DNA of 64,000 bases from Candidatus Parcubacteria bacterium (lineage in GTDB: Bacteria; Patescibacteriota; Saccharimonadia; UBA4664; JBIOIQ01): the NCBI GenBank assembly GCA_963718875.1, contig OY970378.1, forward strand, positions 872,265 to 936,264, read 5' to 3'. Of the stretch, positions 2,413 to 25,549 are shown in pieces. Under the pieces are notes generated by a model. It did no database searches and was not told the origin of the DNA. It saw only the letters and a program-made list of their open reading frames with translations. The first letter of the stretch is position 1. The number at the start of each line of letters is the position of its first letter. Position numbers and translations under genes: made by a program.

Positions 2413-2426
2413 AGGCAAGACCAAAT

Positions 2427-3053
2427 TTAATTGGTTAGGGCGGTGTAGGTGACAATGTCGGTATAAGTTCCCTGCAAGACCGTGGCATTTGCCGCCACGC
2501 TGTACCAAACAGTAGTAACGTCGTTTGTACTGTTGGTAGAAGTTGTTTTGAGAGTGTTGGGTGATCCTGATGCCGGTACTCCTGCAAATGTGTCGGCAAC
2601 AAAGGCAGCGCTAGACTGCGAGCTGGTTGGGCCAGCTCCAAACCCGCCAGCTCCGTCCACTCTATACCCCCATCTACCTGAGGTTAGAGCAATGGGTGAT
2701 GCTTGAGTTCCGGTGGTGGCTGAAATGTTGTTGGAGCCTGAAACCAGGTTAGTATTGGCGTCAGCGTCTTCGAGTGTAAGGGTGTAGCCACTAATGTCGT
2801 TGGTACTTACCGTCACAGTATCGCTAGCAATGGTCTGGGCGCCGGCTACTGTAGGAAGAACATTTACATTTACTGTACCGCTGGTAGTAAACAGGCTAAT
2901 TATGGGGCTTATGACTGAACTAATAGTGGTATTGGCGCTAAAAACAGCCCCACTTAATACTGGGCTGATCATAATAAGCCCGCTTGCGACAATAGCTAGG
3001 CGTATCGGCTTAATATCTAGGAAGTGCATTTTTACCATAAGCTTTATAGACAT
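2427..3053 (-). CDS. Small secreted WxL-like protein. C-terminus ...GTYTDIVTYTALTN.
   Basis: Signal peptide MVKMHFLDIKPIRLAIVASGLIMISPVLSGAVFSA. S/T/G/A/N-rich body. C-terminal motif shared with four other proteins in the cluster. Confidence 0.5.
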   Translation of the reverse strand: MSIKLMVKMHFLDIKPIRLAIVASGLIMISPVLSGAVFSANTTISSVISPIISLFTTSGTVNVNVLPTVAGAQTIASDTVTVSTNDISGYTLTLEDADANTNLVSGSNNISATTGTQASPIALTSGRWGYRVDGAGGFGAGPTSSQSSAAFVADTFAGVPASGSPNTLKTTSTNSTNDVTTVWYSVAANATVLQGTYTDIVTYTALTN

Positions 3054-3082
3054 AATATACGCTGACTCCCAGAGAGTCAAAT

Positions 3083-3976
3083 CTAGCGCTTAAATCTAGG
3101 ACGGAGTCGACGGAATAAGACAGCAACTATGATAACTACTAGCATAAGTAGGCCCACTACTCTCCAATAGCCAGTTATTGCAAAAACTAGCGAAACATGA
3201 CTTTTGCCGGTATCTTTGTCAGTAACTAAAAGCGGAATAAGACCAACATAACTACCTGCCTTGGAAAAGCTGAATTCACGCTTGTTACCGGGAAAAACTA
3301 GTGGGCCGTTCAAGTAAGTGCGCCTACCCCACCAGGCTGCTCGGACAGATACAGTTGGGTTATAGGCAATTGCCCTAGGAGCCTCCCCCACGTTTGCATA
3401 TTGGATTGTTCCCTTTATGCCATTGCCAAACTGAAAAAAAGCCGACTTCAGGCTAGAAATTGTGCCACTTTTTTTACCTGCCCCGCCGTTATCAAGGATA
3501 AGTAACGTTCCGGCTTTGGCGCTCTGCATGATGATATTGCCACTAACTGATGTGGGCTTTGGGACGGTGGCAAAAAAAATCGCACCATAAACTCCACCTT
3601 TAGGCAGCTTGTTGGGATCGATTGTAAAAGCAACTCTTACGGCTTCACGTGGACCTAAGTCGAATTCTGAGGCCGACACTGTAATACCTCTACTTATTGC
3701 AGCATCCTGATAAAATTGCAGGTCCCCGGCTAAGTTTATTTGTCGAAAAGCGCTGACTTCACTTTTTAGTGAAATAGTAGAGTCGGATGGGTTAGAAACA
3801 TCAACAAACCCCAACTTTGAGGTAGACCCGGTTAAGCTATCTTGATATTTGAGAGGCGAGACTGAAATAGTGGGGATACTAGCGAACAGCGGTTGTGGCC
3901 GTATCAGCCCACAGAGGATCAAACTAAAAAACGCCGGGATTACTAAACCAAGCCGCAGGATAAGCAGGCGCTTCAT
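3083..3976 (-). CDS. DUF916/DUF3324-like (CscA-like) membrane-anchored surface protein
   Basis: Signal peptide, ...KGGVYGAIFFATVP... motif, C-terminal TM (VVGLLMLVVIIVAVLF) and basic tail RRLRPRFKR. A 4-nt ATGA overlap with the upstream gene indicates an operon. Confidence 0.5.
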   Translation of the reverse strand: MKRLLILRLGLVIPAFFSLILCGLIRPQPLFASIPTISVSPLKYQDSLTGSTSKLGFVDVSNPSDSTISLKSEVSAFRQINLAGDLQFYQDAAISRGITVSASEFDLGPREAVRVAFTIDPNKLPKGGVYGAIFFATVPKPTSVSGNIIMQSAKAGTLLILDNGGAGKKSGTISSLKSAFFQFGNGIKGTIQYANVGEAPRAIAYNPTVSVRAAWWGRRTYLNGPLVFPGNKREFSFSKAGSYVGLIPLLVTDKDTGKSHVSLVFAITGYWRVVGLLMLVVIIVAVLFRRLRPRFKR

Positions 3977-5334
3977 GGTTTGAGCGTGGCAGTGTAAACC
4001 ACGGAATTCGTATAAGTACCAGACTTTTGAGATGTGGCAGTGTCGGCTCGAAACCGAACTGAGCTTTTTTCTGGTACCCCACCATTAAGTCCAGTGCGGG
4101 AGTGAAATATGGTGGGAGTGGTTGGAATAAAGGCAAAGTTAAAATTGGGCGTACTCCCCCACTTGACTTCTACTTGAGTCCCACTTATAAGGCTAAATCC
4201 TAGGCCCTTGGTTGTTCCCTCATTCCAGGCTGCCGGCGTTGCGATGTTTGCTGTAACACCCGGAATAGTGGTGATTCCGTCAACGGTATGAAGCAAGTCG
4301 TGGTCCTCTTGAATATAGAGCGAATAGCCACCGGCGTCAGTGCGCACCACAGCGTCGGCATCATAAATTTGGGAGATTCCTGGTGTAATGTTTGGCACCG
4401 TAAAAGCACTAGAAGAACCGGCGGCAGCAGAAGAAAAATCATTTTCTATCTCGCGAGGACTTAATGCCCGGCTATATAATTTAACCTCATCAATAGTGCC
4501 TTTAAAAAAGTTGGCTAGGTCATCTCGAGCGCCTAGCTTTAAAGTGTTGGTGTTGGTGGTGGTGGTGCCTATTGACCCCGTGCCAACCGGCGAGCCATCG
4601 ATGTAGAGTGTGGCGCTACCACCAGATTTGGTTACTGCTATGTGCGCAAACGTCCCCGTCGGAACTGCAGAACTACTAGTGATAGTTCGTAAAGCCGTGT
4701 CAAATCCTAAAAACTGTAATTTACCTGTGGTCTGCTCAATGCGCAGCTCGTAAGTATTGTTGGCTGAGCCATTGCCGGTGGTTTTAGCGGCAATGGTGGC
4801 ATTGTTGGCATAGTCGGTAGGTTTAACCCAAGCCTCGATGGTGAGCGATCCGGTCAAGTTTAAATTGGCATTACTGGCAATATTGGTATATTGATTTGAC
4901 CCATTCAAACCCAGTCCTTGGCCCAACTTACCGCTAACCCAAGTGGGCGTCCCGCTGGAATAACCATGGTTTTCGTTGGTGCTAACGTCATAGGCCACCG
5001 TGCCAACTCCCGTATCTAAGGGGTAATACGAGACGGTCCCACTAGGCAACACCGCCAAAGTTATCGACTGAGAAAGCTGAGCCACGTAACCTTGCGTCAG
5101 TTTGTAACTTTGACTCGATCCGCTTCCTACAACCCCTTCTCCACCGGAGTCATAAAGTTTATACGAGGTTGAGGAACCGGCTCCGCCAAAGGTGCTTCCA
5201 ACATTAGGATCTAACCGATAATTTGGACTGGTTAATGAGGTGGCATGGCCTGTGATTGGCAATGCCAAGATAAGCATAACAAACCCGGCTATGTAACGTC
5301 GCACCTCTGTACTCGAATTAAGCATTACCAACAT
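3973..5334 (-). CDS. Secreted LamG/concanavalin A-like lectin domain protein with a WxL-like C-terminus (...GTYTNSVVYTATLKP). Start taken at internal ATG 5334; the ORF as listed runs to 5613.
   Basis: LamG_3-like motifs (LTIEAWVKP, TFAHIAVTKSGGSATLYIDGSPVG, FKGTIDEVKLYSRALSPREI). Signal peptide MLVMLNSSTEVRRYIAGFVMLILALPITGHA. The ORF portion upstream of 5334 overlaps the IS element. Confidence 0.6.
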   Translation of the reverse strand: MLVMLNSSTEVRRYIAGFVMLILALPITGHATSLTSPNYRLDPNVGSTFGGAGSSTSYKLYDSGGEGVVGSGSSQSYKLTQGYVAQLSQSITLAVLPSGTVSYYPLDTGVGTVAYDVSTNENHGYSSGTPTWVSGKLGQGLGLNGSNQYTNIASNANLNLTGSLTIEAWVKPTDYANNATIAAKTTGNGSANNTYELRIEQTTGKLQFLGFDTALRTITSSSAVPTGTFAHIAVTKSGGSATLYIDGSPVGTGSIGTTTTNTNTLKLGARDDLANFFKGTIDEVKLYSRALSPREIENDFSSAAAGSSSAFTVPNITPGISQIYDADAVVRTDAGGYSLYIQEDHDLLHTVDGITTIPGVTANIATPAAWNEGTTKGLGFSLISGTQVEVKWGSTPNFNFAFIPTTPTIFHSRTGLNGGVPEKSSVRFRADTATSQKSGTYTNSVVYTATLKP

Positions 5335-5375
5335 TATGCCAAACTTGTTTGGTTTTGGCCAGCTAGGAAAGGGCG

Positions 5376-6254
5376 GGTTCTGTCCACTAAAACGGAACAG
5401 ACATACTTTTAAGTAATATAAATGGGCTACTGAACAACTCTGGGTGGTTCTTTCTAGCCTGGAACTCTCTGAGTAATCCCGGTAAGAACTGATGCATGAA
5501 GCGGTCGCGGGTACGTCTGGTAAACCGATCCAGGCAGCTCCAGATCCCTTCAATGCGGTTGGTTGGTCCAAAGTGGCCAATGGAATGGTTGCAGATCTCC
5601 AGACCATAGCCAACTTCCATTAGGCCAAGGTGAGAGGCGTGAGCATCAGCAAAGATCAGGCTACCGAGAGTGGCATACTGATCGAGAAAACCTTCTATGC
5701 TATCCTGCTCACAATCTAGTATCTCAGCTAGTCTTACGAGGTTGGTTTCCCGGTCCACGATACCCATAACAATGTGTTGGTTACCATATTTCTGCCGACC
5801 TAGATAGCTCTGGTCTATCTCCAGTAGCCCGACTAACTGGCTCTTGTCGACTGGTAGTCTAGATCGCAAGCGTTCTAACCAGCGTTGGATCGTCCAGTAG
5901 GACAGCCCCGTTGAGGTGATAATGTCGCCAGGTGACTGCTTACCGCTCCAGCAAGTCACCAGTTCCAGAATCCTCCTCCAGCCGAGCTTAGACGACCCAA
6001 AGCCGACTTGTTTCTTTAAGCTCCATTTACGACGACAGGTGCCGCACCAAAGATACTGAGTAGTTATGTGGATGTTTGAGTGAGACATCCAAGGGCAAAT
6101 AGGGCCCTCGGGATAAAGATGTACTAGCACTTGGTTAAAACATTCTTGGTCTGTTACCGGTAGATCTGCTAATGTGGTCATTGGAACAAGTCTCCTTTTC
6201 TAACTGGTTAGTCCTAGTTAGATTGTAGCTTGTTCCGCTTTAGTGTAATGAACC
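5376..6254. mobile_element. IS1595-family insertion sequence (879 bp) with ~25-bp imperfect terminal inverted repeats and a 9-bp direct repeat (GAAAGGGCG) at both flanks
   Basis: Left end GGTTCTGTCCACTAAAACGGAACAG. Right end, reverse-complemented, is GGTTCATTACACTAAAGCGGAACAAG. Flanking GAAAGGGCG at 5367-5375 and 6255-6263. Single transposase ORF inside. Confidence 0.75.
5387..6181 (-). CDS. IS1595-family (ISXO2-like) DDE transposase with N-terminal zinc-ribbon
   Basis: 264 aa. N-terminal CPWMSHSNIHITTQYLWCGTCRRKW zinc ribbon. Length and architecture typical of IS1595. Sits inside the inverted-repeat-bounded element. Confidence 0.75.
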   Translation of the reverse strand: MTTLADLPVTDQECFNQVLVHLYPEGPICPWMSHSNIHITTQYLWCGTCRRKWSLKKQVGFGSSKLGWRRILELVTCWSGKQSPGDIITSTGLSYWTIQRWLERLRSRLPVDKSQLVGLLEIDQSYLGRQKYGNQHIVMGIVDRETNLVRLAEILDCEQDSIEGFLDQYATLGSLIFADAHASHLGLMEVGYGLEICNHSIGHFGPTNRIEGIWSCLDRFTRRTRDRFMHQFLPGLLREFQARKNHPELFSSPFILLKSMSVPF

Positions 6255-6629: not shown

Positions 6630-7553
6630 CTAGTCTTTGCCGCTGAGTGCTCTGAAAGCCTTTTTGAATCTTTTTCGGTTACGCCAGAGCAAGAAGTACA
6701 ATACGACGAGTAGAGAGGCGGCTATGATGAGCAGTTTGTATGGAACAACTGTAAAACTGGTTTCGGCTGTTAACTGTTGTTTGTCGCCGTTGTTTAATAC
6801 CAATGTGGCCTTATAAAAACCAAACATCCACTTTTTATTAAGGGTTGTTTCGGTGCGACGGATAGCGCCAGGAATAACATTCTTGGGCTCCAGCTTGACC
6901 GTGGCAACCTTCATACCCAATAGGTTCTTAACCGTGATTGTGCCTGTCGGCTTGGCGTGAACGTTGCCAGTATCTTTTATACGAGTTTCAAACTTGATGG
7001 GCCCAATCTCGTAAAAGGCCTTTTCGGTTTTAAAACTGGCAATTTCAACCCTCTCATTGGCATTACCGGCAATACGTAAAAATATTAGTGCGCCAAGCTG
7101 CTGCTTAACCGCCGCCCCGGATTGCCCACTCGGTAGCGTGGTCTCCAGAGTGTGGAATACTAACGATCCATAGCGTCCGCCAGGCTCGGCGTTCAAAGGA
7201 ATGTCGATTTTGAAACTAACCGATTGGGTCCCCTTAGCAGGAACGTTTATTACATCGGGTGTAGCGCTAAACCATGGCGCTAAAGAATAAAGGTCGTTAT
7301 TAGTAGTGAGGTCCACTTGCCCCTCTTCGCCTTTAGCAACAAAATTATTGCGGTCAGCTGCCAGGACTAGTGGCGAGCCAGTAAGATTGATGATTTTGAA
7401 TGAGCCGGTTACCGATTGGCCGGGATTAGCCGATATTTCTAAAGATGGCGGGGATATAGCAAACCCAAGTGAATCCGCATGCGCTTGCCCAGCTATTCCA
7501 ACAGAGCTTGCGAGCAAACTTATGACAACTAAAAAGCGAACCAAGTATTTCAT
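6630..7553 (-). CDS. DUF916/DUF3324-like (CscA-like) membrane-anchored surface protein
   Basis: Signal peptide MKYLVRFLVVISLLASSVGIAGQAHA. Motifs NAEPGGRYGSLVF and DTGNVHAKPTGTITVKNLLGMKV. C-terminal TM plus RNRKRFKK tail. Confidence 0.55.
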   Translation of the reverse strand: MKYLVRFLVVISLLASSVGIAGQAHADSLGFAISPPSLEISANPGQSVTGSFKIINLTGSPLVLAADRNNFVAKGEEGQVDLTTNNDLYSLAPWFSATPDVINVPAKGTQSVSFKIDIPLNAEPGGRYGSLVFHTLETTLPSGQSGAAVKQQLGALIFLRIAGNANERVEIASFKTEKAFYEIGPIKFETRIKDTGNVHAKPTGTITVKNLLGMKVATVKLEPKNVIPGAIRRTETTLNKKWMFGFYKATLVLNNGDKQQLTAETSFTVVPYKLLIIAASLLVVLYFLLWRNRKRFKKAFRALSGKD

Positions 7554-7875: not shown

Positions 7876-8970
7876 TTAATAAATGGGGGTGCAGGTGTAG
7901 ATGACGGTGGTGGTGTAGGTGCCTGGTTTTGTAACACCAGAGATGCCAACTTGATGGCCGACGCGGGTGGTTTGTGAAGCTACCGGGGCGGCATCGTAGG
8001 CGACCTCTGCATTGCTGGTAGTGTTAGCCGCCCAGACATCAGGAGTGCTGGTAAAGCGGTTGACGGCTAAGGCTTGCAAGGTGGCGTCATTGGTAGTGTA
8101 GCCGTACGACTCTGTTCCGGCGGCTGAAAATGAGGTTGGTGCGGCGTTGGTTCCAGTGTGGTCAGCAATTTGATTAGCGCCCGAGGTGGGTTTAGCGGTA
8201 TAGCGTATGAATACCGTATACCCGCTGCCGGCGTTGGTGGCGACGCTTAAATCTTGGCAAACAATTGAATTAGAGGCCGTTGTTACGGTACCAAAGGGAA
8301 TGGTGGTAGACGTACTGGCCTGCGTCGATGTTGCCCCATTACAACTAGCTCCGGATGCGACCGTATTAACTGTAAAGCTTAATGTAGGGTCGACGGTTAA
8401 TGACAGGGTCGATCCTGGGGTGAAGATAAACGCTAGAGTTGTATTGTCTACGGGGCTAGTGGTGCAATCGACGTTGTCATAAGTACTAAACTGCATGAAG
8501 TAGCTAACGTTAGGGATGGAGCTGTTTACAACTCCGGCCAATACAAAAGTGGCGTTAGTGGTAGTAGACGGGGTGATGCCAGTGTTGTGGGTATAAGTTA
8601 TGTTATTGGCGGTTGGGGTTAGCGTCCAGCCAGTGCCAGAGCTATTAACTAAAGTTGATGATGCGGCGGTGACGGTGGCAGAGGCGGCGGTGAAGCCGTT
8701 GCCAATATTAACCGCTGAGCTTGGGCTGGTACTAAAAACAGCTTTAATACATTTAATACTGGCGCTGGTAACGTTGCTAGCTGTAGTCGTATAAGTAGAG
8801 GTGGCACTTGGACGAGGGTCGCTTAGAGCGACCGATGCAGGGTTTAGTTGAGCAGCATTAACAATTCCAAAGTTGAGCGACATCGTGCCCAACAAGGTAA
8901 CCCAAGCCATCCATAGTCTCATTAAACGGCCTTGTGAAGCAATGATTTTGATTTGACTATGTTTTTTCAA
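7876..8970 (-). CDS. Secreted WxL-like surface protein, C-terminus ...GTYTTTVIYTCTPIY
   Basis: Signal peptide, then conserved N-terminal segment ...ALSDPRPSATSTYTTTAS.... Thr/Ser/Ala/Asn-rich body. C-terminal motif shared with the 15934 and 17364 paralogs. Confidence 0.55.
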   Translation of the reverse strand: MKKHSQIKIIASQGRLMRLWMAWVTLLGTMSLNFGIVNAAQLNPASVALSDPRPSATSTYTTTASNVTSASIKCIKAVFSTSPSSAVNIGNGFTAASATVTAASSTLVNSSGTGWTLTPTANNITYTHNTGITPSTTTNATFVLAGVVNSSIPNVSYFMQFSTYDNVDCTTSPVDNTTLAFIFTPGSTLSLTVDPTLSFTVNTVASGASCNGATSTQASTSTTIPFGTVTTASNSIVCQDLSVATNAGSGYTVFIRYTAKPTSGANQIADHTGTNAAPTSFSAAGTESYGYTTNDATLQALAVNRFTSTPDVWAANTTSNAEVAYDAAPVASQTTRVGHQVGISGVTKPGTYTTTVIYTCTPIY

Positions 8971-9068: not shown

Positions 9069-10769
9069 CTACTTTTCATTAGACTCATCATCGGGAGTTT
9101 GAGATTCCTGATTTGGGGTTTTGCGCTTAGACCTGCCACGCCAATCGGTAATCATCAAGAATCCGCGCTGAGCCTTGGCAGTCCCGCTCCACACCCACCC
9201 CAGGGGCTTCCAAGCTGCAGCTTTACGCAGCCAGGCAATAAGGTGCGGCTCATGAGCTGTATGCGCAATCTGATGAGCTCCTTTTAGCCTTAGCCATTTT
9301 TCCCTACGCCAAGCTAAAAATAACACTACATTAATAATAGTTGCGACAATAAGCAGAACCACAACTAGCGGCAGCAGCAAGCGCTGGTACCAAGGAGGTG
9401 GAACTGGTTTTTTGAGTGCAGTGGCAGTAATAACTAATTTGAGGTCTGGCGATGGAGAACTTTCGGCGCCAACACTATTGACCCGACTAAAACGAATGGT
9501 GTAATTGCCTGGGAACAATTGCGGTTTATAAGTATATTCCCAAGTGATGCCATTGGCAAAGCCGCCGGCTCCTTTGTCTTTGGCCTTGGAAGCTTTTTTG
9601 TCTTTGGCTAAAAATTGTTCGAGCAGCTTACCATTTAAAAAGACTGATATGGTATCCCCTGCCTCCGACTGCCCAATATAGTTCATGGGTTGTAAAATAA
9701 CTAACGACGAAGGCCAAGTCAGTATCTTGGGAGGGGCAATGCCTGTAATTTCGAAGTCGGTTTTGGCTTCTTTTGTGTTACCGGCTTTGTCGTAGGCAGT
9801 TACTACAATGGTGTGTTTACCTGGGCGCTGTTTGGGGATGGCGTCGCCAGGATTTAAGGGAAAGGCTTCTCCATCATCAATTTTGGCTGTGTAGCGGTCG
9901 ATGCCAGAGATGCCGTCATTAGCTGTAAAACTTGCCTTGGGAGTAGGATTTGAAGCATTGCTGCCGTTGTCCATTTTGACGCTAAAATCATCTGGTGGGC
10001 TAGAATCTATATGAATATCAAAATGGACAGTGCTGCCACCGGTTTGATTAGAGCCTTTTAAATGGAAATACCAAGTCCCTTCATCTAGGTCGTATGAAGT
10101 ATTAATAGTGCCGTTATTGGGACTATTTGGAACGGTGCCTGGGTTACGGTCAACCGCAAATGAGTAATTACCAACGGCCGTTGTAGCAAACCAATTTAGC
10201 TCCACGCGGCGGCTGGTATACCATTGGTTTTCGTTGGGATGAGTTCTGGAGTTTACTGTCAGTAAGGGCACCGGGGGCTTAGGAGTGTTAACGGTAAAAG
10301 TGGCGCCACTGGAGCAGCACAATACATTTGTACCCATGCCATCATTGGCCAGTATTTGACTACCGGCCACATTGACGGTATACGTGCCTGGCGTGGTGGC
10401 ATTAAATATTACGGTCACAACGCGTCCGCCGCTGCCGTTGTAGCCAGGGTTAGACAGCCCACCCGAAAAATAAACTGACGAGCCTGAACCAACAGGCCCG
10501 GCACCTCCCCCACTGGCCCAAGTGGTAAATATTGAGCCCGAGGTAGAGGCAAATGAATATTGTAAGCCGGGGGTCCAGGTAACGGTGGCTTCACCAGCAT
10601 TAATAGCTTGGCCGCCTGAGTTAATCATTATACCCACGCGAATCACGTCGCCAACATTGTAGGCGCCAGAGGATGGTGAAGCGTAAAAGCTGGCGTTGGC
10701 GGCGGCACGGGCTGTGGGGGCCGGGATAAGGCTAGCCGATAAGGAAGAAACGAAAACGGCTAGTAGCAT
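9069..10769 (-). CDS. Large surface protein: signal peptide, N-terminal cohesin-like domain, Ig-like repeats, C-terminal TM helix and cytoplasmic tail. ORF runs to 10913; likely start at MLLAVFVSS.
   Basis: Cohesin-like segment GDVIRVGIMINSGGQAINAGEATVTWTPGLQYSF...GRVVTVIFNATTPGTYTV. TM LLLPLVVVLLIVATIINVVLFLAW near the C-terminus. Confidence 0.55.
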   Translation of the reverse strand: MLLAVFVSSLSASLIPAPTARAAANASFYASPSSGAYNVGDVIRVGIMINSGGQAINAGEATVTWTPGLQYSFASTSGSIFTTWASGGGAGPVGSGSSVYFSGGLSNPGYNGSGGRVVTVIFNATTPGTYTVNVAGSQILANDGMGTNVLCCSSGATFTVNTPKPPVPLLTVNSRTHPNENQWYTSRRVELNWFATTAVGNYSFAVDRNPGTVPNSPNNGTINTSYDLDEGTWYFHLKGSNQTGGSTVHFDIHIDSSPPDDFSVKMDNGSNASNPTPKASFTANDGISGIDRYTAKIDDGEAFPLNPGDAIPKQRPGKHTIVVTAYDKAGNTKEAKTDFEITGIAPPKILTWPSSLVILQPMNYIGQSEAGDTISVFLNGKLLEQFLAKDKKASKAKDKGAGGFANGITWEYTYKPQLFPGNYTIRFSRVNSVGAESSPSPDLKLVITATALKKPVPPPWYQRLLLPLVVVLLIVATIINVVLFLAWRREKWLRLKGAHQIAHTAHEPHLIAWLRKAAAWKPLGWVWSGTAKAQRGFLMITDWRGRSKRKTPNQESQTPDDESNEK

Positions 10770-10909
10770 AAATGAGCGACCCCACGACCTTCGCGCTTGA
10801 ATCCAGTTCAAGGAAGAACCGAGAACCACAGAGAGGCGTACCCGGAAGTACGCTGACCGAGGATCGCAGGCTCTGACGACGAAATGGGCCAAGCGAGTAG
10901 GTCGTAATG

Positions 10910-11440
10910 TCATTTGATGTCTACCTCGATGGGCTTGAGCTGCAAGGGAATTGAGGTACCCAAACCATCATTAAGTTTTACGGCGGTATTACCCGTAAAA
11001 GTTAGTTTGGTTTTGAGGGGTTTTTTAGCCACCAGGGTTACACTACCAACTTTGCCTTGGCCGCGAAAACCAGGGTTAAAAATGCCACCCACAAAACTAA
11101 TGTCGCCGCTGGTATTAGAAAATTTTGGTTCATTGGGAACCCAAATAGTAAAGAATGTCTGATCCTTGCTGATGGAATCTACCTGGACCACCTTGGGGTC
11201 AAACTTTAAATATATCTCAGCCGCATTAATGGTTTGGCCAGCGGTATCAATAACAATTGGTAGTGTTAATCGGTGGTTACTACCCGAAACGGGCTGAGGT
11301 GCAGTAATAGTGGCCTCTCTCGAGGTTGGGGTTTTATTAAATAGCAAATAGCCGCCTATGACTGATATGCCAAACAGGGCAATAAAATGCCAGCGGCGGT
11401 GAGTTGGACGATTTGGTTGAGGTTTTCCCACAGTATCCAT
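10910..11440 (-). CDS. Membrane-anchored cohesin-domain protein
   Basis: N-terminal TM (WHFIALFGISVIGGYLLF). Cohesin-like LTLPIVIDTAGQTINAAEIYLKFDPKVVQVDSI...GDISFVGGIFNPGFRGQGKVGSVTLVAKK. 4-nt overlap with the downstream gene. Confidence 0.6.
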   Translation of the reverse strand: MDTVGKPQPNRPTHRRWHFIALFGISVIGGYLLFNKTPTSREATITAPQPVSGSNHRLTLPIVIDTAGQTINAAEIYLKFDPKVVQVDSISKDQTFFTIWVPNEPKFSNTSGDISFVGGIFNPGFRGQGKVGSVTLVAKKPLKTKLTFTGNTAVKLNDGLGTSIPLQLKPIEVDIK

Positions 11441-11504
11441 AAAACGCTTATGTCTATAATACCGTAAACGGAAGAATACTCAACCTTAGGAAGCGTTTAT
11501 TCTA

Positions 11505-11627
11505 ATTGTCATCCTGAAGAGGAAGGCCAGTATCAAATCGCTCGATGCGCCGTGGAGCATGGCCGCACCTACTGTTCAGGATCTCTTCTCTAGATTAAGA
11601 GGCCCTGAAACAAGTTCAGGGTGACAA
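11505..11627. repeat. MITE-like intergenic repeat, copy B. Terminal inverted repeats ATTGTCATCCTGAA / TTCAGGGTGACAAT, core GGATCTCTTCTCTAGATTAAGAGG.
   Basis: Core is 24/25 identical to 26373-26397. The TCTTCAGGATGACA end motif is shared with 26450-26466 and 34581-34598. Confidence 0.5.
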
Positions 11628-11701
11628 TTTTGGAGGTTCTTGGAGACAAAAGTGAGGGCAGTTCAGACACTTTTCTCGACAGAAATGATCCTTTTGTGAC
11701 A

Positions 11702-11749
11702 CGCTCCCGCCCACCCCAAGTGCTCAAAGTTTATTTTGAGCACTTGGGG
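11702..11749. repeat. Repeat element with a perfect 15-bp stem hairpin (CCCCAAGTGCTCAAA-GTTTAT-TTTGAGCACTTGGGG). Its first 27 bp (CGCTCCCGCCCACCCCAAG[T/C]GCTCAAA) recur at 12831-12858.
   Basis: Direct inspection. The two copies bracket a ~1.1 kb segment containing the high-GC ORF 12351..12800. Confidence 0.55.
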
Positions 11750-11857
11750 TGAGTAGAATAACAAAGGCCTTTACTGTTTCTTGACAAATTAAACTTCTTA
11801 TGCTACACTACTTGTTGTATCTGGAAATTCCAGGTAGCACATGCAAAAGGAGCAGTC

Positions 11858-12097
11858 ATGCTCAAGCACGAACTTGAACAAAAGTTTATGCTAACTTTCA
11901 GTTTTGCAAGCAACTGCAAAAGCCGTAAAGGAAACCAGCTGTGGATCGCTTCGGGTATTTACATCGAGGGAGACGGGTGGTGTGACCACGCATACTGGAC
12001 TTGCATCCGTGCTATAGTCAACCCCGCCACAAACGAGGTATATTCTTACTCTATCGAAGAGGATGATTGGCCTACCGGGCCAATGTATAACCCCTAG
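11858..12097 (+). CDS. Hypothetical small Cys-containing protein
   Basis: 79-aa ORF lying between the two 27-bp repeats. No recognisable domain. Confidence 0.3.
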   Translation: MLKHELEQKFMLTFSFASNCKSRKGNQLWIASGIYIEGDGWCDHAYWTCIRAIVNPATNEVYSYSIEEDDWPTGPMYNP

Positions 12098-12350
12098 ACT
12101 GCAGTTCCTGCGAAATTGATCTGAAATCCAAGGATACACCTTGTGCGGTACCGATTTACGAAGTAACATCTTTTTGCATCACCCGAGGGACTAGTCTCTC
12201 AAAAGCGGTTGCTGTTGCACCGCCTTTTCTCAAGCTTTCAACCGACTGGTTGACGTCTTAAGAGAAGTTCCAGCACTTTTTATTGACGTATCCGATATTT
12301 TTATGCCATAATACTTTTGACCAAATTGCTCTCTCAAGGATGTCGACAAC

Positions 12351-12800
12351 ATGACCACAAGCACCTGGGTTGGATTCGACCGCGCCCTCGCCGTAGCACT
12401 GGAGCAGTACATCAAGCCGCAACTCTCCGTGAACTTCTTCGGCCCACTCTCAGTTGCCCAGCTGCTGGAGGCCGGTTACGGAGTGTACATCTCCGGCGAC
12501 CTCAAGGACACCAAGGTTCTCGTAGTCTACCAAGACGACGAGGGCAACACATGCGTTCGCCTCGGCAACCTCCTCGCAACCATCGCGGCAAACGTGATGT
12601 CCGCCCATGACACCAAGACCCTCGCTCAACCAGATGGCGATTGGGTCTGCGTTGGCGCCACCACGTTGACCCTCTGCTCTGCCTACGGCACCATCCCTGG
12701 CAGGGTCATCTACGTCCTCGATCAGGTCACGGATTTGGGAATTTCCGGCTTCGTCGCCGGCTACCGCGCCGGCCACTGGGATGGCGGGATCGTTCCCTAG
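12351..12800 (+). CDS. Hypothetical protein encoded in a high-GC island
   Basis: 149-aa ORF with GC-rich codons, in contrast to the flanking sequence. Many overlapping alternative-frame ORFs, typical of high GC. No recognisable domain. Confidence 0.45.
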   Translation: MTTSTWVGFDRALAVALEQYIKPQLSVNFFGPLSVAQLLEAGYGVYISGDLKDTKVLVVYQDDEGNTCVRLGNLLATIAANVMSAHDTKTLAQPDGDWVCVGATTLTLCSAYGTIPGRVIYVLDQVTDLGISGFVAGYRAGHWDGGIVP

Positions 12801-12830
12801 CTAGGCAATTTGGGCATGGGAGCGCTACTC

Positions 12831-12858
12831 GCGCTCCCGCCCACCCCAAGCGCTCAAA
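12831..12858. repeat. Second (truncated) copy of the 27-bp repeat GCGCTCCCGCCCACCCCAAGCGCTCAAA
   Basis: 26/27 identical to 11702-11728. The hairpin is only partly retained. Confidence 0.5.
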
Positions 12859-12895
12859 TATTTTTGAGAATTTAGGCTAGGATTAATAAGAGCTA

Positions 12896-13243
12896 TTAAT
12901 ACCGCAACAAACCTCTTCGCTTTAGTTCACTGAATACAGCAACATAGTATGCTGGGTGTTTTTGCCAATCCGAAGGGGTTGAGCTATTTACTATTGCAAT
13001 AATATCTTCGTCAGTAGCGGGCGTTTCGCCTGCACCGAGTAACTTTTCACGAGAACCAACATTGTGAAGTACCCCAGGTTGCAACTCAATCATTCCAGCC
13101 AAGACATCCATCATTTCGCCAAGCTTTTTTTCGTCTATGCCAGGCTCAATATAAGCATTAAACTCGGGCTCATCGGCTTTCCCTCCAGAGCCAGCGTCTG
13201 GTTCTATTCTTTTACCGCCCGGAAATTCAATAAGTTCTCCCAT
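12896..13243 (-). CDS. Hypothetical acidic protein
   Basis: 115-aa ORF, directly downstream of 13256..13747. Confidence 0.4.
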   Translation of the reverse strand: MGELIEFPGGKRIEPDAGSGGKADEPEFNAYIEPGIDEKKLGEMMDVLAGMIELQPGVLHNVGSREKLLGAGETPATDEDIIAIVNSSTPSDWQKHPAYYVAVFSELKRRGLLRY

Positions 13244-13255
13244 GACTAAAGCCTA

Positions 13256-13747
13256 TTACAGATATCTTCCGCCACCTTCGACGCTTGTATCTCTTTTTTT
13301 GTCACCAATAGCCACTTGTGCTTTAGCTCGTCTGTCTCCAAGCTTTTTAGTTTCTTCTGCAATAAAACGTTCATAGTTGGGGTTATTCATGGCTGCTAGC
13401 TCAGCCAAGCACTCTTCCACCAGCTGTAAATGATATTCAATGTCGCCAGTAGCCCTTCCCGCCTCAACATCCTCGATATAACGGTCAATGGTTCCACTGT
13501 TTACATATGCGGCAGATACAACTGATGTATCCCTAGGTGACTCAGCAACAGTCGCCCCGCTTATAGATGCCATTTCAGGATATTCGGCTAACAGAGCTTC
13601 ATCTAAATCAAATTTGGCAATATTCGGATCGTATAAAGCTTCATTAGGGTCAATTTCAACTTCTTCATCAATCGCGCCCAACCCCTCTACTGGACTGACT
13701 GCTTCCGCTCCGTCTGGATTAACTTCTCCTTCTTCTGGTCTTGGCAT
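13256..13747 (-). CDS. Hypothetical acidic protein
   Basis: 163-aa ORF, Asp/Glu-rich, no recognised domain. Confidence 0.45.
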   Translation of the reverse strand: MPRPEEGEVNPDGAEAVSPVEGLGAIDEEVEIDPNEALYDPNIAKFDLDEALLAEYPEMASISGATVAESPRDTSVVSAAYVNSGTIDRYIEDVEAGRATGDIEYHLQLVEECLAELAAMNNPNYERFIAEETKKLGDRRAKAQVAIGDKKRDTSVEGGGRYL

Positions 13748-13944
13748 ATAGATTATCCTCTATCTTTCTCGCATCCTCAAAAAAGATGCTTTGCGTCGCT
13801 ATTACATTATTTTGAAATCTTTTGCATCATACCAGTTAATCGAAACTGATATCAAGACTGGCCTTCGACTACGCTCAGGCAATAAAGCGATGGATCGAAA
13901 ACCGCTTCGAAAAGATCACAGTAGGCGAGTTTGCTATGACCAGA

Positions 13945-14772
13945 CTACCCCGTCCAGTAAAACAACATGATCGACAGGTCGGTAAGGTTGGTTTTGGTGT
14001 CATCATTAATATCAGCCGGTTTATTGATGTTGGATTGCAAGTAAAAGAACATGAGGATAGAAAAGTCGGTTAGGTTGACGCGGTTGTCGTTATTTAGGTC
14101 AGCCGAAAGTACCACCGTAAAACTGGCCGGAGGCGTTTGCGGGCTTTGGTTAGCACTCGGGTTTTGCACCACACTGCTGGCAGTGTAAGTACCAAGGTGC
14201 AAGGTTCCGGAAGGTGAGGTTTGCCAATTACCGATGGAATCGGACGGGCTGGTAGTTGCAAACGAATCGCTGTATTTTGCGCCGCTCCAAAAGGTTGTGA
14301 CCGTGGAGTCTTGGCGGGTTGTCCCAACTATTGATTGAATTTGGGGCCGTTTGATGGGGTTTTTAATAATCTGGAATGTGGTGGGCAGTAAATAGCCACT
14401 CAGGGTAGTGGTATAGGCAGGCAAAATCGTGACGTCATTACTAACAGTAGCCGAAACTCGGCCGGATACATCCGTGGCATGAATGCTGTAGGTGGCTAAC
14501 CCTTGGGATTGGTTGGTAAAAGTATTATCAAAACTGCTGTCAGCTCCTGCAGTTTGAGTGCCAATAACCACGCCGTTACGCTCAAACGTTACCAACGCCC
14601 CTGGCGAGGCCTCCCCTACAAACTGAACTCCCCCGTTTTGCACTGGCAGCTCAGCCCCAATAGTTGATTCCTCGGTAAGTGCTGTTATGGCCATAATGGG
14701 GGCGCTTAAAGAGCTGAAAAAAAATAAAGCCGCTAAGGCTGTTGACGGCTTAACGTTAAAACGGGCACGCAT
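13945..14772 (-). CDS. Secreted protein with a C-terminal type-I dockerin-like duplicated repeat
   Basis: Signal peptide. C-terminus ADLNNDNRVNLTDFSILMFFYL...ADINDDTKTNLTDLSIMLFYWTG is a tandem D-x-N-x-D-x-x-x-N-x-x-D Ca-binding repeat typical of dockerin. Start overlaps the stop of the upstream gene. Confidence 0.65.
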   Translation of the reverse strand: MRARFNVKPSTALAALFFFSSLSAPIMAITALTEESTIGAELPVQNGGVQFVGEASPGALVTFERNGVVIGTQTAGADSSFDNTFTNQSQGLATYSIHATDVSGRVSATVSNDVTILPAYTTTLSGYLLPTTFQIIKNPIKRPQIQSIVGTTRQDSTVTTFWSGAKYSDSFATTSPSDSIGNWQTSPSGTLHLGTYTASSVVQNPSANQSPQTPPASFTVVLSADLNNDNRVNLTDFSILMFFYLQSNINKPADINDDTKTNLTDLSIMLFYWTG

Positions 14773-15932
14773 TAGCGACCCTTAATTAAAACCCTGGCAG
14801 CCGACGCAAGACGCTTGCGCAAGACAAACAGCAACACAAGAATGACGATGGCCATAATTAGCACCCAGAGCGGGAAGGCCCAAAAAACAGTTTCAGCGGT
14901 CAAAATTTTGTTTTGCGATCCATAAACGGCTGCCACTTGGGCGCGGTAATATCCACCCCACAGCGACTTCGTAGGCCAAATCACACTAATACGACGTTCG
15001 CCCCCAGGAAATACATTGCGGGGGTCAAGCGCTACTTGATCAACCTTGCGTCCAAAAATATCATAAATCGTAACTGTTCCGGCTGGCTTAAAGTGAACGT
15101 TGCCGGAGTTTTTAAATACCAGATCGAAAGCAATGGGACCTTGATTAAAGTAGCTTTTGGGCTTTTCGTTATTTAGGTCCTCGCCCGAGGCCACGTAGAT
15201 TTTGGTCTTGCCGTCGGAGCCCGTAACTGTTTGCCAGTCCCCAATAAAATTTTTGGTGCGAAAGCTTTTAATACTGCCTGCTTCAGTAACAGCCCCACTA
15301 ACCTTCATCAGAATAAGCGAGCCAACTCGCTGAATTACGCTGGCGCCGGTAGAATTGGAACTTGCAGCCACGACGGGGTTGAATAATACAGTGGCAAAAT
15401 GACCGCCGGGCTCAGCATTTTTGGGAACACGGATAGTAAATGGAACCAGAGCTGACGATTTGGCAGCTAAAGGGATCTGAGTGGTTGTAAAACTAAACCA
15501 ACTGGCAAAGGCGTTAGTCTTTGCGTCATCCGCTACCTTTACCGACCCTTCAGTTCCTGCCACCGTAAAATCTTGAGCGCTGGCAGTTAGTGTTACGGCC
15601 GCATCAGACTCATTGGTTACCCGAATGGTGTTACTTAAGGTGTCTCCTGGGTTAGCGCTTAGTTCATAAGTGGGTGGAGATACAGTAATACCTTGGGTTG
15701 TGGCCGCCGATACCGGTTGGCCGATTGCTATTAAAGCGATAGAGGCCAGAATTAGGCTGCCAAAAGATTTTTTTATAGATAAGAAACTCACTAGGACTTT
15801 CTCACTTGAGTGCAGTTTGGATGCAAATATCGAGTACCGTAAACGAGGCGTAGTTGACCTACGTCGAGTGCGGAACGGAGATTTTGCGCCGAAATGTGCC
15901 AAGTGTGATAGTCCTATAGTACTTATGTTCAT
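14772..15932 (-). CDS. DUF916/DUF3324-like (CscA-like) membrane-anchored surface protein
   Basis: Motifs KNAEPGGHFATVLF and NSGNVHFKPAGTVTIYDIFGRKV. C-terminal TM plus RKRLASAARVLIKGR tail. Confidence 0.55.
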   Translation of the reverse strand: MNISTIGLSHLAHFGAKSPFRTRRRSTTPRLRYSIFASKLHSSEKVLVSFLSIKKSFGSLILASIALIAIGQPVSAATTQGITVSPPTYELSANPGDTLSNTIRVTNESDAAVTLTASAQDFTVAGTEGSVKVADDAKTNAFASWFSFTTTQIPLAAKSSALVPFTIRVPKNAEPGGHFATVLFNPVVAASSNSTGASVIQRVGSLILMKVSGAVTEAGSIKSFRTKNFIGDWQTVTGSDGKTKIYVASGEDLNNEKPKSYFNQGPIAFDLVFKNSGNVHFKPAGTVTIYDIFGRKVDQVALDPRNVFPGGERRISVIWPTKSLWGGYYRAQVAAVYGSQNKILTAETVFWAFPLWVLIMAIVILVLLFVLRKRLASAARVLIKGR

Positions 15933-15933
15933 T

Positions 15934-17036
15934 CTAAAAGGTTGGAGTGCAAGTGTAAACCACTTTCCCGGTATATGTACCCGCCGGCGAGAATACGGTA
16001 AAGCGCAGTCGATATCCTATATTAACCGCATCGCTGGCCACGCTGTTGTTGGCATGGGCTACTTCGGCATCGGTATTGGTGACCCCGGCAAATAAATTAT
16101 CGGCCGTCGTAAAGCGGTTAGCCACCCCAGATAAACTGGCGTCGCTAGTAGTATAGCCAAATAATTCAGCTGGTCCGCCAGGCGTAGCCGTTGGACTCGT
16201 GTTTGTTCCCGTCCAGTCAGGTATAGAAGCTGCTCCATTTTTTAATACATCGCCGGCGGTGGTAAACTTTTAATAGTTACTTGATAGCCGCTGCCAGCAT
16301 TAGTGCTAGTCGTAAGTGTTTGCGCACAATCATAGTCAGTGTTGGGTGATAATGGCTGAATAGCTGAGCCAAATGTGACGGAGGTAGCAGTATCATTACA
16401 AAGGCTAGCTGTGCTTAAGGCACCTTTATAAATAGTGGAAGCTGGAGTCCCGGTAACATTAAAAGTTAAGGTAGGATCGATAGTAAGGCTGACTGTAACG
16501 GCCACTACAATCACGTAGGCAATGGTGGCGGAGTCGACTTCGGTGGTGTAAGTATCATCAGAATAGGTAGTAAGTCGTACAAAATAAGTCCCGGGGTTGG
16601 TGGGATTTGTAACATTACTAAACACAATTTGTTGGGATCCCGTGGGAGCCGCCACATTCGAGCTATTTTTGATCTGAAGTGAGCTCGTAACAGAGTCATT
16701 GGTCCAGCCTGAAGAGTCGCCATAGCCCACCGGTTGGCTGGCAAGGGTGGCGGCGGATGCTGAAAAGCCAGTTGGAGCTACACAACTACCAGAGCTGGTA
16801 GTGCACATTTGAGCTCGGAAAGCCTTGAGTACCGTACTACTGCCGACGGTAAAACTATAACTGTAGGAAACGTTACTCTCGGTCGGCTGGGTGTCCGATA
16901 ACGATACGCTGGCGCTACTAATAGCACCAGCGGCGGCACTGGCCGAAACCCACAGAAGCTTACTGGCAACTAATACCAATAAAACAACAATAGTAGCGTG
17001 CAATCGCACGGGGTACTTGGATATTTGCTTAGTCAT
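15934..17036 (-). pseudogene. WxL-like surface protein paralog of 17364..18308, split by a frameshift at an A4/T4 tract (~16264-16273) into ORFs 16242..17036 and 15934..16125
   Basis: The N-terminal ORF ends ...GYQVTIKSLPPPAMY*. The other frame continues ...FTTAGDVLKNGAASIPDWTGTNTSPTATPGGPAELFGYTTSDASLSGVANRF... to ...GTYTGKVVYTCTPTF and is colinear with the paralog. Confidence 0.55.
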
Positions 17037-17363: not shown

Positions 17364-18308
17364 TTAGAATACGGGGGTACAGGTATAGACTAGAGTGCCT
17401 CGGTATACACCTGCTTCTGTTACGCCGGTGTATTTGAGTCGGTAGCCCACATTTACTTGATCATTGGCAATGGCCGTAGCATTGTAAGCTACTTGATCCG
17501 GAGTGGTGGTAAGACCGGCAAACAGATCATCCGAAGCGGTAAATCGAGTGGCTACGCCGGATAGGGTGGCGTCGTTAGTGGTGTAGCCAAACGTTTCGGC
17601 GGGAGTGACGGCAGTAGAGGCAGGCGTGGCGTTTGTTCCGGTGGAGTTAGTGATGCTCTTAGTAGCATCACTAATGAGCTTTAGGAAGTCACCACTGGTT
17701 TGCTTGCCTTGGACGGTTACTTGGTAGCCACTATTAGCGTTGGTACTGGTAGCCAGCTGTTGAGCGCAGTCATAGGTAGTGTCAGCTGAAAGTGGCGAGG
17801 CTGGACTACCAAAGGTAACGGCGGTGGCAGTATCGGTACATTTGGCGTCAACTGCCAGGGAACCTTTAAAGGTGGTGGCTGGAGCAAGTCCAGAGACAGT
17901 AAAGCTTAGAGTCGAGTCGATCGTGGCACTTACCAGTACGCTAGGAACCGTTACAAAACCAATCACAGTGGCGTCAACCAGAGTGGCGCACGTGTCATCA
18001 CTGTAGGTGTTTATTTCAATATAAAATGTGCCTCCGCTTGATGAAGTGGGATTCGTAAGTAACTGGATGGGGGTGGTGATTTGGGTACCAGATGTCACTG
18101 ACGCACCAGTGACATTGGTTTCTTTTACCGTTCCAGCCGTACTGTTGTCGATAGTCCAGTTGGCAGCCGTTAAGTTAGTGAAAACACCGTTGGTTGCGGC
18201 AGAGTTAGAAAAACCGGTCGGCGTTGTACCTTGACCGGCATTGGGCGAAGTACTCCAACGATACGTAAAACACTCAAGCGTGGCGGTAGTACTAGCCATC
18301 CAGCTCAA
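17364..18308 (-). CDS. Secreted WxL-like surface protein (...GVYRGTLVYTCTPVF). The true N-terminus probably extends to a GTG near 18503 through a second frameshift.
   Basis: The in-frame upstream sequence encodes ...AAGGLTNASATLSDPRPDAPAASVSY, matching the paralog N-termini. A signal peptide (RRNSTVNGRFRRLFNAVIVASIGLFTFNGLFSAV) lies in another frame, separated at a T/A-rich stretch around 18385-18400. Confidence 0.5.
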   Translation of the reverse strand: MSWMASTTATLECFTYRWSTSPNAGQGTTPTGFSNSAATNGVFTNLTAANWTIDNSTAGTVKETNVTGASVTSGTQITTPIQLLTNPTSSSGGTFYIEINTYSDDTCATLVDATVIGFVTVPSVLVSATIDSTLSFTVSGLAPATTFKGSLAVDAKCTDTATAVTFGSPASPLSADTTYDCAQQLATSTNANSGYQVTVQGKQTSGDFLKLISDATKSITNSTGTNATPASTAVTPAETFGYTTNDATLSGVATRFTASDDLFAGLTTTPDQVAYNATAIANDQVNVGYRLKYTGVTEAGVYRGTLVYTCTPVF

Positions 18309-24962: not shown

Positions 24963-25549
24963 CAGAACCCGGGATGAGCCACCACGAATCAGAAGCCAAC
25001 GATAGAGCAATGTTTGGTTTCTGGGTTTATTTGATGACAGATCTTTTAATGTTTGCTGTTCTTTTCGCAGTGTACGCGGTGTTGCACAGCCATACGCTCG
25101 GCGGAGAGTCAGGACGTGAACTGTTTAGCCTCCCGCTGGCATTGACTGAAACCCTGATTCTTCTCACTAGTAGCTTTACGTGCGGGATCGCCATGATCGC
25201 TGCTCGCCGGGGCAACAAAACCCAAACACTCTTTTGGTTCGGCATTACGTTTGCACTTGGTCTGGCTTTCCTTGGTTTGGAATTGAAAGAATTTGCTGAG
25301 TTTATTCATGAGGGCCACACTCTACGCAGCAATGCATTCTTGTCCTCGTTCTTTGTGCTGGTGGGAACGCACGGGCTACACATTACTTCCGGACTGCTGT
25401 GGATGGCGATTACCCTGGGATTTATTTTGAAACGTGGACTTAACTCTCACATGGTGCGCAAGTTGGCCTTGCTAAGCTTGTTTTGGCACTTTCTGGATAT
25501 TGTGTGGATCTTTATCTTCACCATTGTGTACTTAAGGGCATTCGTATGA
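24956..25549 (+). CDS. cyoC: Quinol oxidase subunit III
   Basis: FGFWVYLMTDLLMFAVLFAVYAVL... resembles the CyoC N-terminus. ATGGTAA overlap with the cyoB stop. Confidence 0.9.
   Translation: MVTEPGMSHHESEANDRAMFGFWVYLMTDLLMFAVLFAVYAVLHSHTLGGESGRELFSLPLALTETLILLTSSFTCGIAMIAARRGNKTQTLFWFGITFALGLAFLGLELKEFAEFIHEGHTLRSNAFLSSFFVLVGTHGLHITSGLLWMAITLGFILKRGLNSHMVRKLALLSLFWHFLDIVWIFIFTIVYLRAFV

Follow-up and report, generated by a model that had tools for sequence, protein, structure and literature searches.

What purpose does a cohesin-dockerin pair serve when it is encoded among pilus genes rather than in a cellulosome? The question is posed by a stretch of 64,000 nucleotides (nt) of contig OY970378.1 (assembly GCA_963718875.1, Candidatus Parcubacteria bacterium), which was analyzed at its full length and is called the window below. 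In it, the gene of a secreted 275-amino-acid (aa) protein ending in a dockerin lies near the genes of two cohesin proteins of 176 and 614 aa. A first-pass annotation, made from the DNA letters, had taken the pair to imply a self-assembling extracellular scaffold. The reading favored here, which we hold to be evenly balanced between right and wrong, is that a cohesin-dockerin joint serves as a membrane tether, probably as the anchor of a pilus. To our knowledge, non-cellulosomal cohesin-dockerin modules have been catalogued for more than 15 years, with almost none of them assigned a role; a pair that is fixed in one operon over a huge, mostly uncultured radiation points to a clear and testable function. 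The parasitic bacterium Ca. Mycosynbacter amalyticus, which belongs to the candidate phyla radiation (CPR), is thought to reach its host by Pam pili, filaments encoded in such an operon (Troman et al., bioRxiv 2026, doi 10.64898/2026.03.03.709456). How these filaments are retained without an outer membrane, a sortase signal, or an usher is an open point in that paper, the sole one on Pam pili.

Identity of the dockerin and cohesin modules

The first-pass annotation had placed a duplicated Ca-binding dockerin repeat at the end of the open reading frame (ORF) of the 275-aa protein, and this was confirmed. Pfam Dockerin_1 (PF00404) matched with a score of 24.5 bits (cutoff, 22.9), and residues 222 to 272 aligned over both repeats with the solved type I dockerin of CelS (Protein Data Bank [PDB] 1DAQ; phmmer, E = 2.3e-4). 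In both loops, DLNNDNRVNLTD and DINDDTKTNLTD, Asp or Asn occupies positions 1, 3, 5, 9, and 12, which is the canonical spacing of the Ca ligands, and D225, N227, D229, D236, D254, N256, and D265 were invariant in a 32-sequence family alignment reaching down to 25% identity. The module is compact, with about 54 residues, and a terminal F-Y-W-T-G was always present in the family alignment. Its two repeats are near-symmetric, being identical at 10 of 22 positions and both having L-T at loop positions 10 and 11. The type I dockerin identity of this C terminus is near certain, and some orthologues already carry the automatic annotation "dockerin type I domain-containing protein."

The AlphaFold2 (AF2) model of the 275-aa protein (predicted local distance difference test score [pLDDT], 89.4) comprised, from the N terminus onward, a signal helix and a stretch with little order, then two immunoglobulin (Ig)-like domains with strands from residue 47 to 221, and finally two short C-terminal helices at residues 234 to 242 and 263 to 271. 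Foldseek retrieved tandem Ig or fibronectin type III (FnIII) proteins with this model, including SiiE, ice-binding adhesins, and RbmA, the last (4be5_A) at rank 30 with an E value of 1.1e-4. The protein has a mass of 29.4 kDa, and according to hydrophobicity and the alignment it has no C-terminal transmembrane (TM) helix; the dockerin stands there instead. Pfam detected no glycoside hydrolase (GH) domain and no carbohydrate-binding module (CBM) in it, in line with the non-cellulolytic context that had been proposed. SEML1_0315, an essential dockerin protein of S. epibionticum, was considered as an orthologue and rejected, as it is the product of a stand-alone gene and 927 aa long.

The cohesin-like signatures that had been read in two further ORFs also held up, and the strings quoted from all three ORFs were present, all on the minus strand. 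In the 176-aa protein, Pfam Cohesin (PF00963) matched residues 56 to 154 at 27.1 bits (gathering cutoff, 24.1; E = 5.4e-6). The AF2 model of this protein, built from a 13-sequence alignment (mean pLDDT, 87.5), showed a helix at residues 14 to 34 followed by a beta-sandwich, and its top 50 Foldseek matches in the PDB were cohesin modules throughout, mostly of type I, together with non-cellulosomal ones (best match, E = 1.2e-7, probability 1.00, TM(target) 0.73). Sequence identity to the solved cohesins was 10 to 18% in the Foldseek alignments. The cohesin beta-sandwich fold was thereby found for the 176-aa protein, the one cohesin protein that the fold check covered. For the 614-aa protein, which the annotation had listed as 9069..10769, Pfam gave no cohesin at E <= 1. 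Here the assignment comes from paralogy: BLASTP aligned residues 95 to 197 with the 176-aa cohesin at 32% identity (E = 4e-10), a local hidden Markov model (HMM) of the 176-aa family scored the protein at 131 bits, and the orthologue at one related locus (L001) has a precomputed PF00963 match. The alternative start at position 10769 would give 566 aa and is equally plausible, homologues having 555 to 581 aa. The cohesin identity of the modules is near certain, and the evidence for the three ORFs taken together lies far outside what chance would produce.

TM helices and membrane topology of the window proteins were called from hydrophobicity. By this measure, both cohesin proteins are predicted to be membrane anchored with the cohesin outermost. 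Their layout differs: the 176-aa protein has its anchor at the N terminus, whereas that of the 614-aa protein is a C-terminal TM helix, its cohesin being borne on the distal tip of an Ig-like stalk.

Conservation of the dockerin-cohesin linkage

Relatives were gathered with an alignment of the dockerin protein against GTDB representatives, one genome per species, and 518 were obtained. Local HMMs built from the window proteins were then run against the complete six-frame ORF sets of the window and of 82 related loci from public genomes, and all linkage counts refer to these 82 loci, which have the dockerin gene. A same-strand cohesin ORF started at most 500 nt past the dockerin stop in 69 of them, and therefore the linkage is conserved and not accidental; within 5 kb the number rose to 73. 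Two downstream cohesin genes were present at 54 loci, three at 13, and one at 7. At three loci (L054, L074, and L080), the cohesin pair lay just upstream rather than downstream, ahead of the chaperone and dockerin genes, and three loci were cut off by a contig edge. L045 had no cohesin within 10 kb despite contig room, and L076 had only a weak (44-bit) cohesin-like ORF. The pair has stayed linked in no fewer than 70 related genomes.

The order of genes was near-invariant: an optional giant pilin-ended protein, one or two pilins, a chaperone, the Ig-Ig-dockerin protein, cohesin A, cohesin B, and an optional cohesin C. A chaperone-family gene stood directly upstream of the dockerin gene at 64/82 loci. 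Taxonomic labels were read from the record titles of the best 80 of the 518 relatives. These were mostly CPR labels (Saccharimonadia, WWE3, Kerfeld-, Parcu-, and Paceibacteria, Microgenomates, Nomura-, Kaiser-, and Berkelbacteria, CPR2, and others), which fits the restriction of Pam operons to the CPR. About 18 of the 80 were deposited as proteobacterial ("uncultured Gammaproteobacteria," "Pseudomonadales," and "Alphaproteobacteria" metagenome-assembled genomes) and one as FCPU426; these labels are probably taxonomic mislabels or come from mis-binned contigs. The closest named relatives of the window proteins were Candidatus Saccharimonadia.

Linkage of this kind bears on whether the two modules are partners at all. 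The dockerin, the cohesins, or both might bind something else, such as host glycans or proteins or modules encoded elsewhere in the genome, of which the analysis covers 64 kb. Cohesins outnumber dockerins at each locus, and Wang et al. (2023) speculated that the essential dockerin-domain protein of S. epibionticum, a different protein of 927 aa, targets host glycans. However, near-universal adjacency over very divergent lineages with 25 to 40% identity would be difficult to account for if the genes had no direct functional link, and the residues of the Ca loops and helices are under strong constraint; binding to other partners is accordingly judged very improbable. Binding between the dockerin and the neighboring cohesins, as read from the conserved adjacency of their genes, is itself rather probable.

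The composition of the loci also bears on the scaffold that the first-pass annotation had inferred. With a dockerin-only HMM, the window yielded one dockerin ORF and no more, as did 80 of the 83 sources searched. The dockerin formed the extreme C terminus in 60 of its 87 hits and ended within two residues of the C terminus in 81. Each cohesin protein had a single cohesin directly behind an N-terminal hydrophobic segment, and a TM helix past the cohesin was found in 57/74 first, 64/67 second, and 9/13 third cohesins; the 170- to 200-aa form of Saccharimonadia, to which the 176-aa protein belongs, has the N-terminal anchor only. Because there is one dockerin per locus and a single cohesin with its own anchor per cohesin protein, the layout is that of a tether and not of a multi-cohesin scaffoldin. 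A cellulosome-like extracellular scaffold gathering several dockerin-bearing subunits, the least supported rival, could point to genuine cohesins and a dockerin side by side and to small proteins at two loci that join a cohesin to a dockerin-like tail, as in adaptor scaffoldins (L031, 11697-12404, minus strand, 235 aa; L058, 10896-11570, plus strand, 224 aa). This adaptor-type arrangement was not seen in the window, and neither dockerin-bearing enzymes nor a multi-cohesin scaffoldin was found in the scans of the window and the loci. Self-assembly of this kind is hardly probable at all, and this part of the annotation is not supported.

A probable Pam-type pilus operon and its possible anchor

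The genes around the pair form one minus-strand run, transcribed in the order pilin, pilin, membrane-anchored chaperone, Ig-Ig-dockerin protein, and two cohesin proteins, followed by more pilins, chaperones, and tip pilins. Surface proteins are indeed encoded here, as the term "surface-adhesin cluster" in the first-pass annotation had it, although the more precise description, given the pilins, the tip pilins, and the membrane-anchored, putatively PapD-like chaperones, is that of a Pam-type pilus operon working by donor-strand exchange, which the cluster very probably is. In Ca. M. amalyticus, for which cryo-electron microscopy structures of the PamA and PamB pili are available, the operon comprises donor-strand-exchange pilins, the PapD-like PamC and PamD keeping a C-terminal TM helix, the tip pilin PamT, which consists of a C-terminal domain (CTD) only, and the tether PamR, and it has an ATP synthase neighborhood; the pilins are CPR specific and consist of an N-terminal domain, a donor linker, and a truncated Ig CTD (Troman et al., 2026). 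The window has a candidate counterpart of each of these gene classes. Two pilin-like proteins matched NF058581 (CPR_Pam_pilin_C, NCBIfam) below its cutoff of 55 bits (Table 1), and a donor-linker consensus, V-T-V-S-A-T-V-D-P-T-L-T-F, conserved over 66 pilins, fits the published description. Four DUF916-like proteins stand among the window pilins, and a C-terminal hydrophobic helix was seen in both of the two that were checked. ATP synthase genes were not seen among the window ORFs scanned. Cohesin-like domains in the pilins were considered and rejected (hhalign probability, 0.1 to 0.2%).

Within this operon, the 275-aa protein can be likened to PamR by description, size, and gene position. PamR has a mass of 32.8 kDa and is described as two FnIII domains like those of RbmA, together with an additional strand at the N terminus and a TM helix at the C terminus, and a donor-strand complex with PamE is reported for it (Troman et al., 2026). 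The 275-aa protein has a pair of Ig domains, its N-terminal strand is free, and its gene adjoins that of a chaperone; accession numbering puts the pamR gene between the pilin PamB and, presumably, the chaperone PamD. Unlike PamR as described, the protein at this position has a dockerin at its end in the window and at no fewer than 70 other loci, and membrane-anchored cohesins come next. Either the tether of M. amalyticus is a fused version with a TM helix or the hydrophobic helices of a dockerin were read as one. Neither "cohesin" nor "dockerin" occurs in the text of Troman et al. (0 occurrences).

In the mechanism proposed here, the dockerin protein would leave the cell via Sec, and its Ca-loaded dockerin would bind the cohesin of one or both membrane proteins, giving a noncovalent attachment to the cell surface. 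Its free N-terminal strand would act as donor for the last pilin in the fiber, so that the cohesin-dockerin joint would hold the pilus on the cell, splitting among separate proteins the tether role that is ascribed to PamR in Ca. M. amalyticus. That the 275-aa protein is a pilus-base subunit in the role of PamR is possible, with a likelihood somewhat short of even. The proposal is based on the position of its gene directly behind the chaperone gene, on a size near that of PamR (29.4 versus 32.8 kDa), on the free N-terminal strand of low pLDDT, and on the tandem Ig/FnIII fold with RbmA among its matches, a generic fold that lends weak support. More tentatively, the donor-strand-exchange pili of many CPR bacteria may be fastened by a Ca-dependent cohesin-dockerin joint and not by a covalent or transmembrane anchor. 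A noncovalent joint would agree with the description of Pam pili as filaments that "appear easily untethered" (Troman et al., 2026).

The N-terminal strand was examined across the family. In many relatives it reads V-(S/T)-V-(S/T)-A-T-V-P. A strict regular expression matched 17 of the 82 dockerin proteins, was judged too strict, and was replaced by an HMM of the pilin linker. With this HMM, a score of 5 bits or more was reached by 20 of the 82 dockerin proteins, the match lying at a constant place ahead of the first Ig domain, versus 7 of 6,136 background ORFs. The strand of the window protein (STIGAELP) aligns with the V-x-V-S-A-T-V-P of its relatives through the family alignment only.

These results also bear on whether the dockerin protein enters the pilus. 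It might be a stand-alone surface protein held on membrane cohesins, whether an adhesin, a spacer, or a strut of the envelope, and be co-regulated with the pilus genes without being a pilus subunit. Linkage and topology speak for such a protein just as they do for a pilus anchor, the window strand did not match the pilin linker, and SiiE, ice-binding adhesins, and RbmA all match the generic tandem Ig fold. Nevertheless, the dockerin gene lies directly behind a pilus chaperone gene at most loci, the N-terminal strand of many relatives resembles a pilin donor strand, and no ligand-binding domain was recognizable with Pfam; a stand-alone role is considered unlikely. Alternatively, the membrane cohesins could replace the missing usher as an assembly platform, with a transient dockerin contact serving polymerization or termination. 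The Pam system lacks a dedicated trans-envelope machinery, a single dockerin is accompanied by two or three distinct membrane cohesins, and the 77-aa cytoplasmic tail of the 614-aa protein could couple the platform to the cell interior. Known cohesin-dockerin pairs, as familiar from cellulosomes, are by contrast very tight structural joints, and no sign of catalysis or turnover was seen here, which makes a platform quite improbable.

Several observations weigh against the tether and the pilus anchor. The window strand failed the pilin-linker HMM (-2.7 bits), and no charge complementarity was found between the dockerin and cohesin modules. In this genome an insert of 2.5 kb stands between the gene of the dockerin protein and those of the cohesins, and the cohesin pair may have a separate promoter-like site; promoter and terminator scans were uninformative. 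By the GenBank numbering of M. amalyticus (QHN43269 for PamB, QHN43270 for PamR, the latter also WP_260763282.1), cohesin genes would not fit between the two, and PamR is described with a C-terminal TM helix, not with a dockerin (Troman et al., 2026).

If the anchor proposal is true, the principle would be one undescribed for any pilus class, and the widespread "non-cellulosomal" cohesin-dockerin modules would gain a defined function. It could also explain the easy shedding of Pam pili, and the published tether model would be revised. As an anchor, the joint would offer a natural modular handle for engineering or blocking host attachment.

Comparison with cellulosomes and WxL loci

The window cohesin shares the beta-sandwich fold of cellulosomal type I pairs (CipA with CelS or Xyn10B of C. 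thermocellum, PDB 1OHZ and 1DAQ; C. cellulolyticum, 2VN5). The window dockerin is, like cellulosomal type I dockerins, a duplicated F-hand with D-x-N-x-D-x-x-x-N-x-x-D loops, and its near-symmetric repeats resemble those of dockerins with a dual binding mode. Among the differences, no GH, CBM, S-layer homology (SLH), or sortase signal was found in the window system, and the cohesin proteins carry one cohesin each, anchor themselves by TM helices, and belong to a pilus operon of an ultra-small, Saccharimonadia-type CPR host. The multi-cohesin scaffoldin with several dockerin-bearing carbohydrate-active enzymes that defines a cellulosome was not found in the window.

A category of non-cellulosomal modules that resemble cohesins and dockerins, in organisms that do not degrade cellulose, is said to have been set out by Peer et al. 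in FEMS Microbiol Lett in 2009; these modules are reportedly mostly scattered and without an assigned role. Two non-cellulosomal cohesins, 2XDH of Archaeoglobus fulgidus and 2JH2 of C. perfringens, were among the fold matches of the 176-aa protein, and we take C. perfringens 2VO8 to be a further example of such a module. The pair described here differs from the scattered modules as a fixed element of one conserved operon that is spread over hundreds of species. It falls into the non-cellulosomal category and within the Pam pilus operon, not into the cellulosomes. The modules themselves belong to known families; what is new is that a CPR pilus operon has, integral to it, a conserved unit of cohesin and dockerin. 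A literature search over 8 million texts found no work joining cohesins or dockerins with the Pam pilus or with CPR, Saccharibacteria, or Patescibacteria, and none of relevance on WxL in Patescibacteria.

A second likeness is to the WxL/Csc loci of Firmicutes. The Pam-type chaperones of the window and their homologues (P0164, P0176-P0206) belong to or border PF06030 (WxLIP_PGBD; NCBI name, DUF916) and have the same layout of an N-terminal domain and a C-terminal TM helix. In the window, PF06030 matched below threshold (21.6 versus 27.3); for the chaperone candidate encoded next to the dockerin gene the match was weak, and many homologues carry PF06030. These similarities hint that the WxL/Csc loci and CPR Pam pili may be related systems. 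Pfam found no WxL domain at E <= 1 in the pilin-like proteins of the window, which sets the cluster apart from a WxL/Csc locus. The C terminus of a pilin, GTYTTTVIYTCTPIY, presumably recalls the distal WxL motif, and we know of no cohesin or dockerin in WxL/Csc loci.

Other features of the window

The coordinates of all features are collected in Table 1. The pilin gene preceding the chaperone gene is split by a 1-nt frameshift near positions 16262 to 16270, beside a short A-run, into ORFs of 264 and 63 aa. In the independent Logan short-read assembly ERR12037361, an unbroken ORF of at least 219 aa with the same stop was found, and the frameshift may be an assembly error, strain variation, or phase variation. 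The stop of the chaperone gene overlaps the start of the dockerin gene.

Table 1. Features of the dockerin-cohesin locus and its surroundings, with positions counted in the window
Feature	Position	Residues	Strand	Basis
Pam-type pilin, 314 aa as listed	17364..18308		-	NF058581, E 6.2e-7, 29.6 bits; local pilin HMM, 252-340 bits
Pam-type pilin gene, frameshift-split	15934..17036 (ORFs 16242..17036 and 15934..16125)		-	Local pilin HMM covers both
PamC/PamD-like membrane-anchored chaperone candidate, 386 aa (376 aa in another gene call)	14772..15932	TM 343-380	-	DUF916/WxLIP-like
Secreted Ig-Ig-dockerin protein, 275 aa	13945..14772		-	Pfam, AF2, Foldseek
Signal peptide of 275-aa protein		1-30		
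N-terminal segment ALTEESTIGAELPVQN past the signal peptide, candidate donor strand	14635..14682	31-46	-	Low pLDDT, outside Ig1 fold
Ig-like domains of 275-aa protein		47-116 and 121-221		Pfam Big_6, Big_13
Dockerin module, two F-hand repeats	13948..14109	222-275	-	1DAQ alignment
Ca-binding loop 1, DLNNDNRVNLTD	14065..14100	225-236	-	
Ca-binding loop 2, DINDDTKTNLTD	13978..14013	254-265	-	
Non-conserved insert between dockerin and cohesin genes, outside the system	11441..13944			Homologue scan
Cohesin protein, 176 aa	10910..11440		-	Pfam, AF2, Foldseek
Hydrophobic N-terminal anchor of 176-aa protein		17-35		
Cohesin module of 176-aa protein	10916..11314	43-175	-	
Cohesin protein, 614 aa	9069..10913		-	Paralogy to 176-aa cohesin, local HMM
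Signal/hydrophobic segment of 614-aa protein		47-71		
Cohesin-like module of 614-aa protein	10284..10700	72-210	-	
Ig-like region of 614-aa protein, with Big_13				Pfam
Predicted TM helix of 614-aa protein	9303..9395	507-537	-	Hydrophobicity
Predicted cytoplasmic tail of 614-aa protein		77 aa		
Pam-type pilin, 364 aa, directly downstream of cohesin genes	7876..8970		-	NF058581, E 1.3e-8, 35.1 bits
Second chaperone-like protein, 307 aa, C-terminal TM	6630..7553		-	DUF916-like
IS1595-family (ISXO2-like) transposase	5387..6181		-	
Distal part of cluster	1402..5613		-	Local HMM domain coordinates
LamG-domain protein ending in pilin CTD	3973..5613		-	Laminin_G_3, E 1.9e-32
Chaperone-like protein, DUF916-like	3083..3976		-	Local HMM
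CTD-only PamT-like tip pilin	2427..3080		-	Local HMM
Chaperone-like protein, DUF916-like	1402..2508		-	Local HMM

Within the pilus cluster, the IS1595 transposase ORF overlaps the listed 5' end of the ORF of the LamG-domain protein, the true start of which is probably further downstream. At related loci, giant ORFs of 1,500 to 2,575 aa head the operons and end in a complete pilin-like module (L030, 2-7729; L062, 3-7721; L040, 1-7569; L059, 1-6450; L073, 1570-7506; also L032, L025, and L001). This suggests that they are tip adhesins built into the pilus, the window analogue being the LamG-domain protein with its pilin CTD.

The 2.5-kb insert is peculiar to this genome. It holds orphan ORFs of 163, 115, 149, and 79 aa, for which no homologue was found at any of the 82 loci and no match in Pfam or PHROG. 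A 34-nt direct repeat with 88% identity (11702-11735 and 12832-12865) flanks 1.1 kb within it, a perfect 17-nt hairpin lies at 11712-11751, and a GC-rich stretch (0.56 to 0.58) spans 12300-12899. The insert looks like a small acquired cassette.

Outside the pilus cluster, an operon for a quinol oxidase of the cytochrome bo type (COX2 with COX_ARM, COX1) was observed on the plus strand at 21952..26239, adjoining UbiA and UppS genes. Such an oxidase is notable in a reduced CPR genome and has reportedly been described for some environmental Saccharimonadia.

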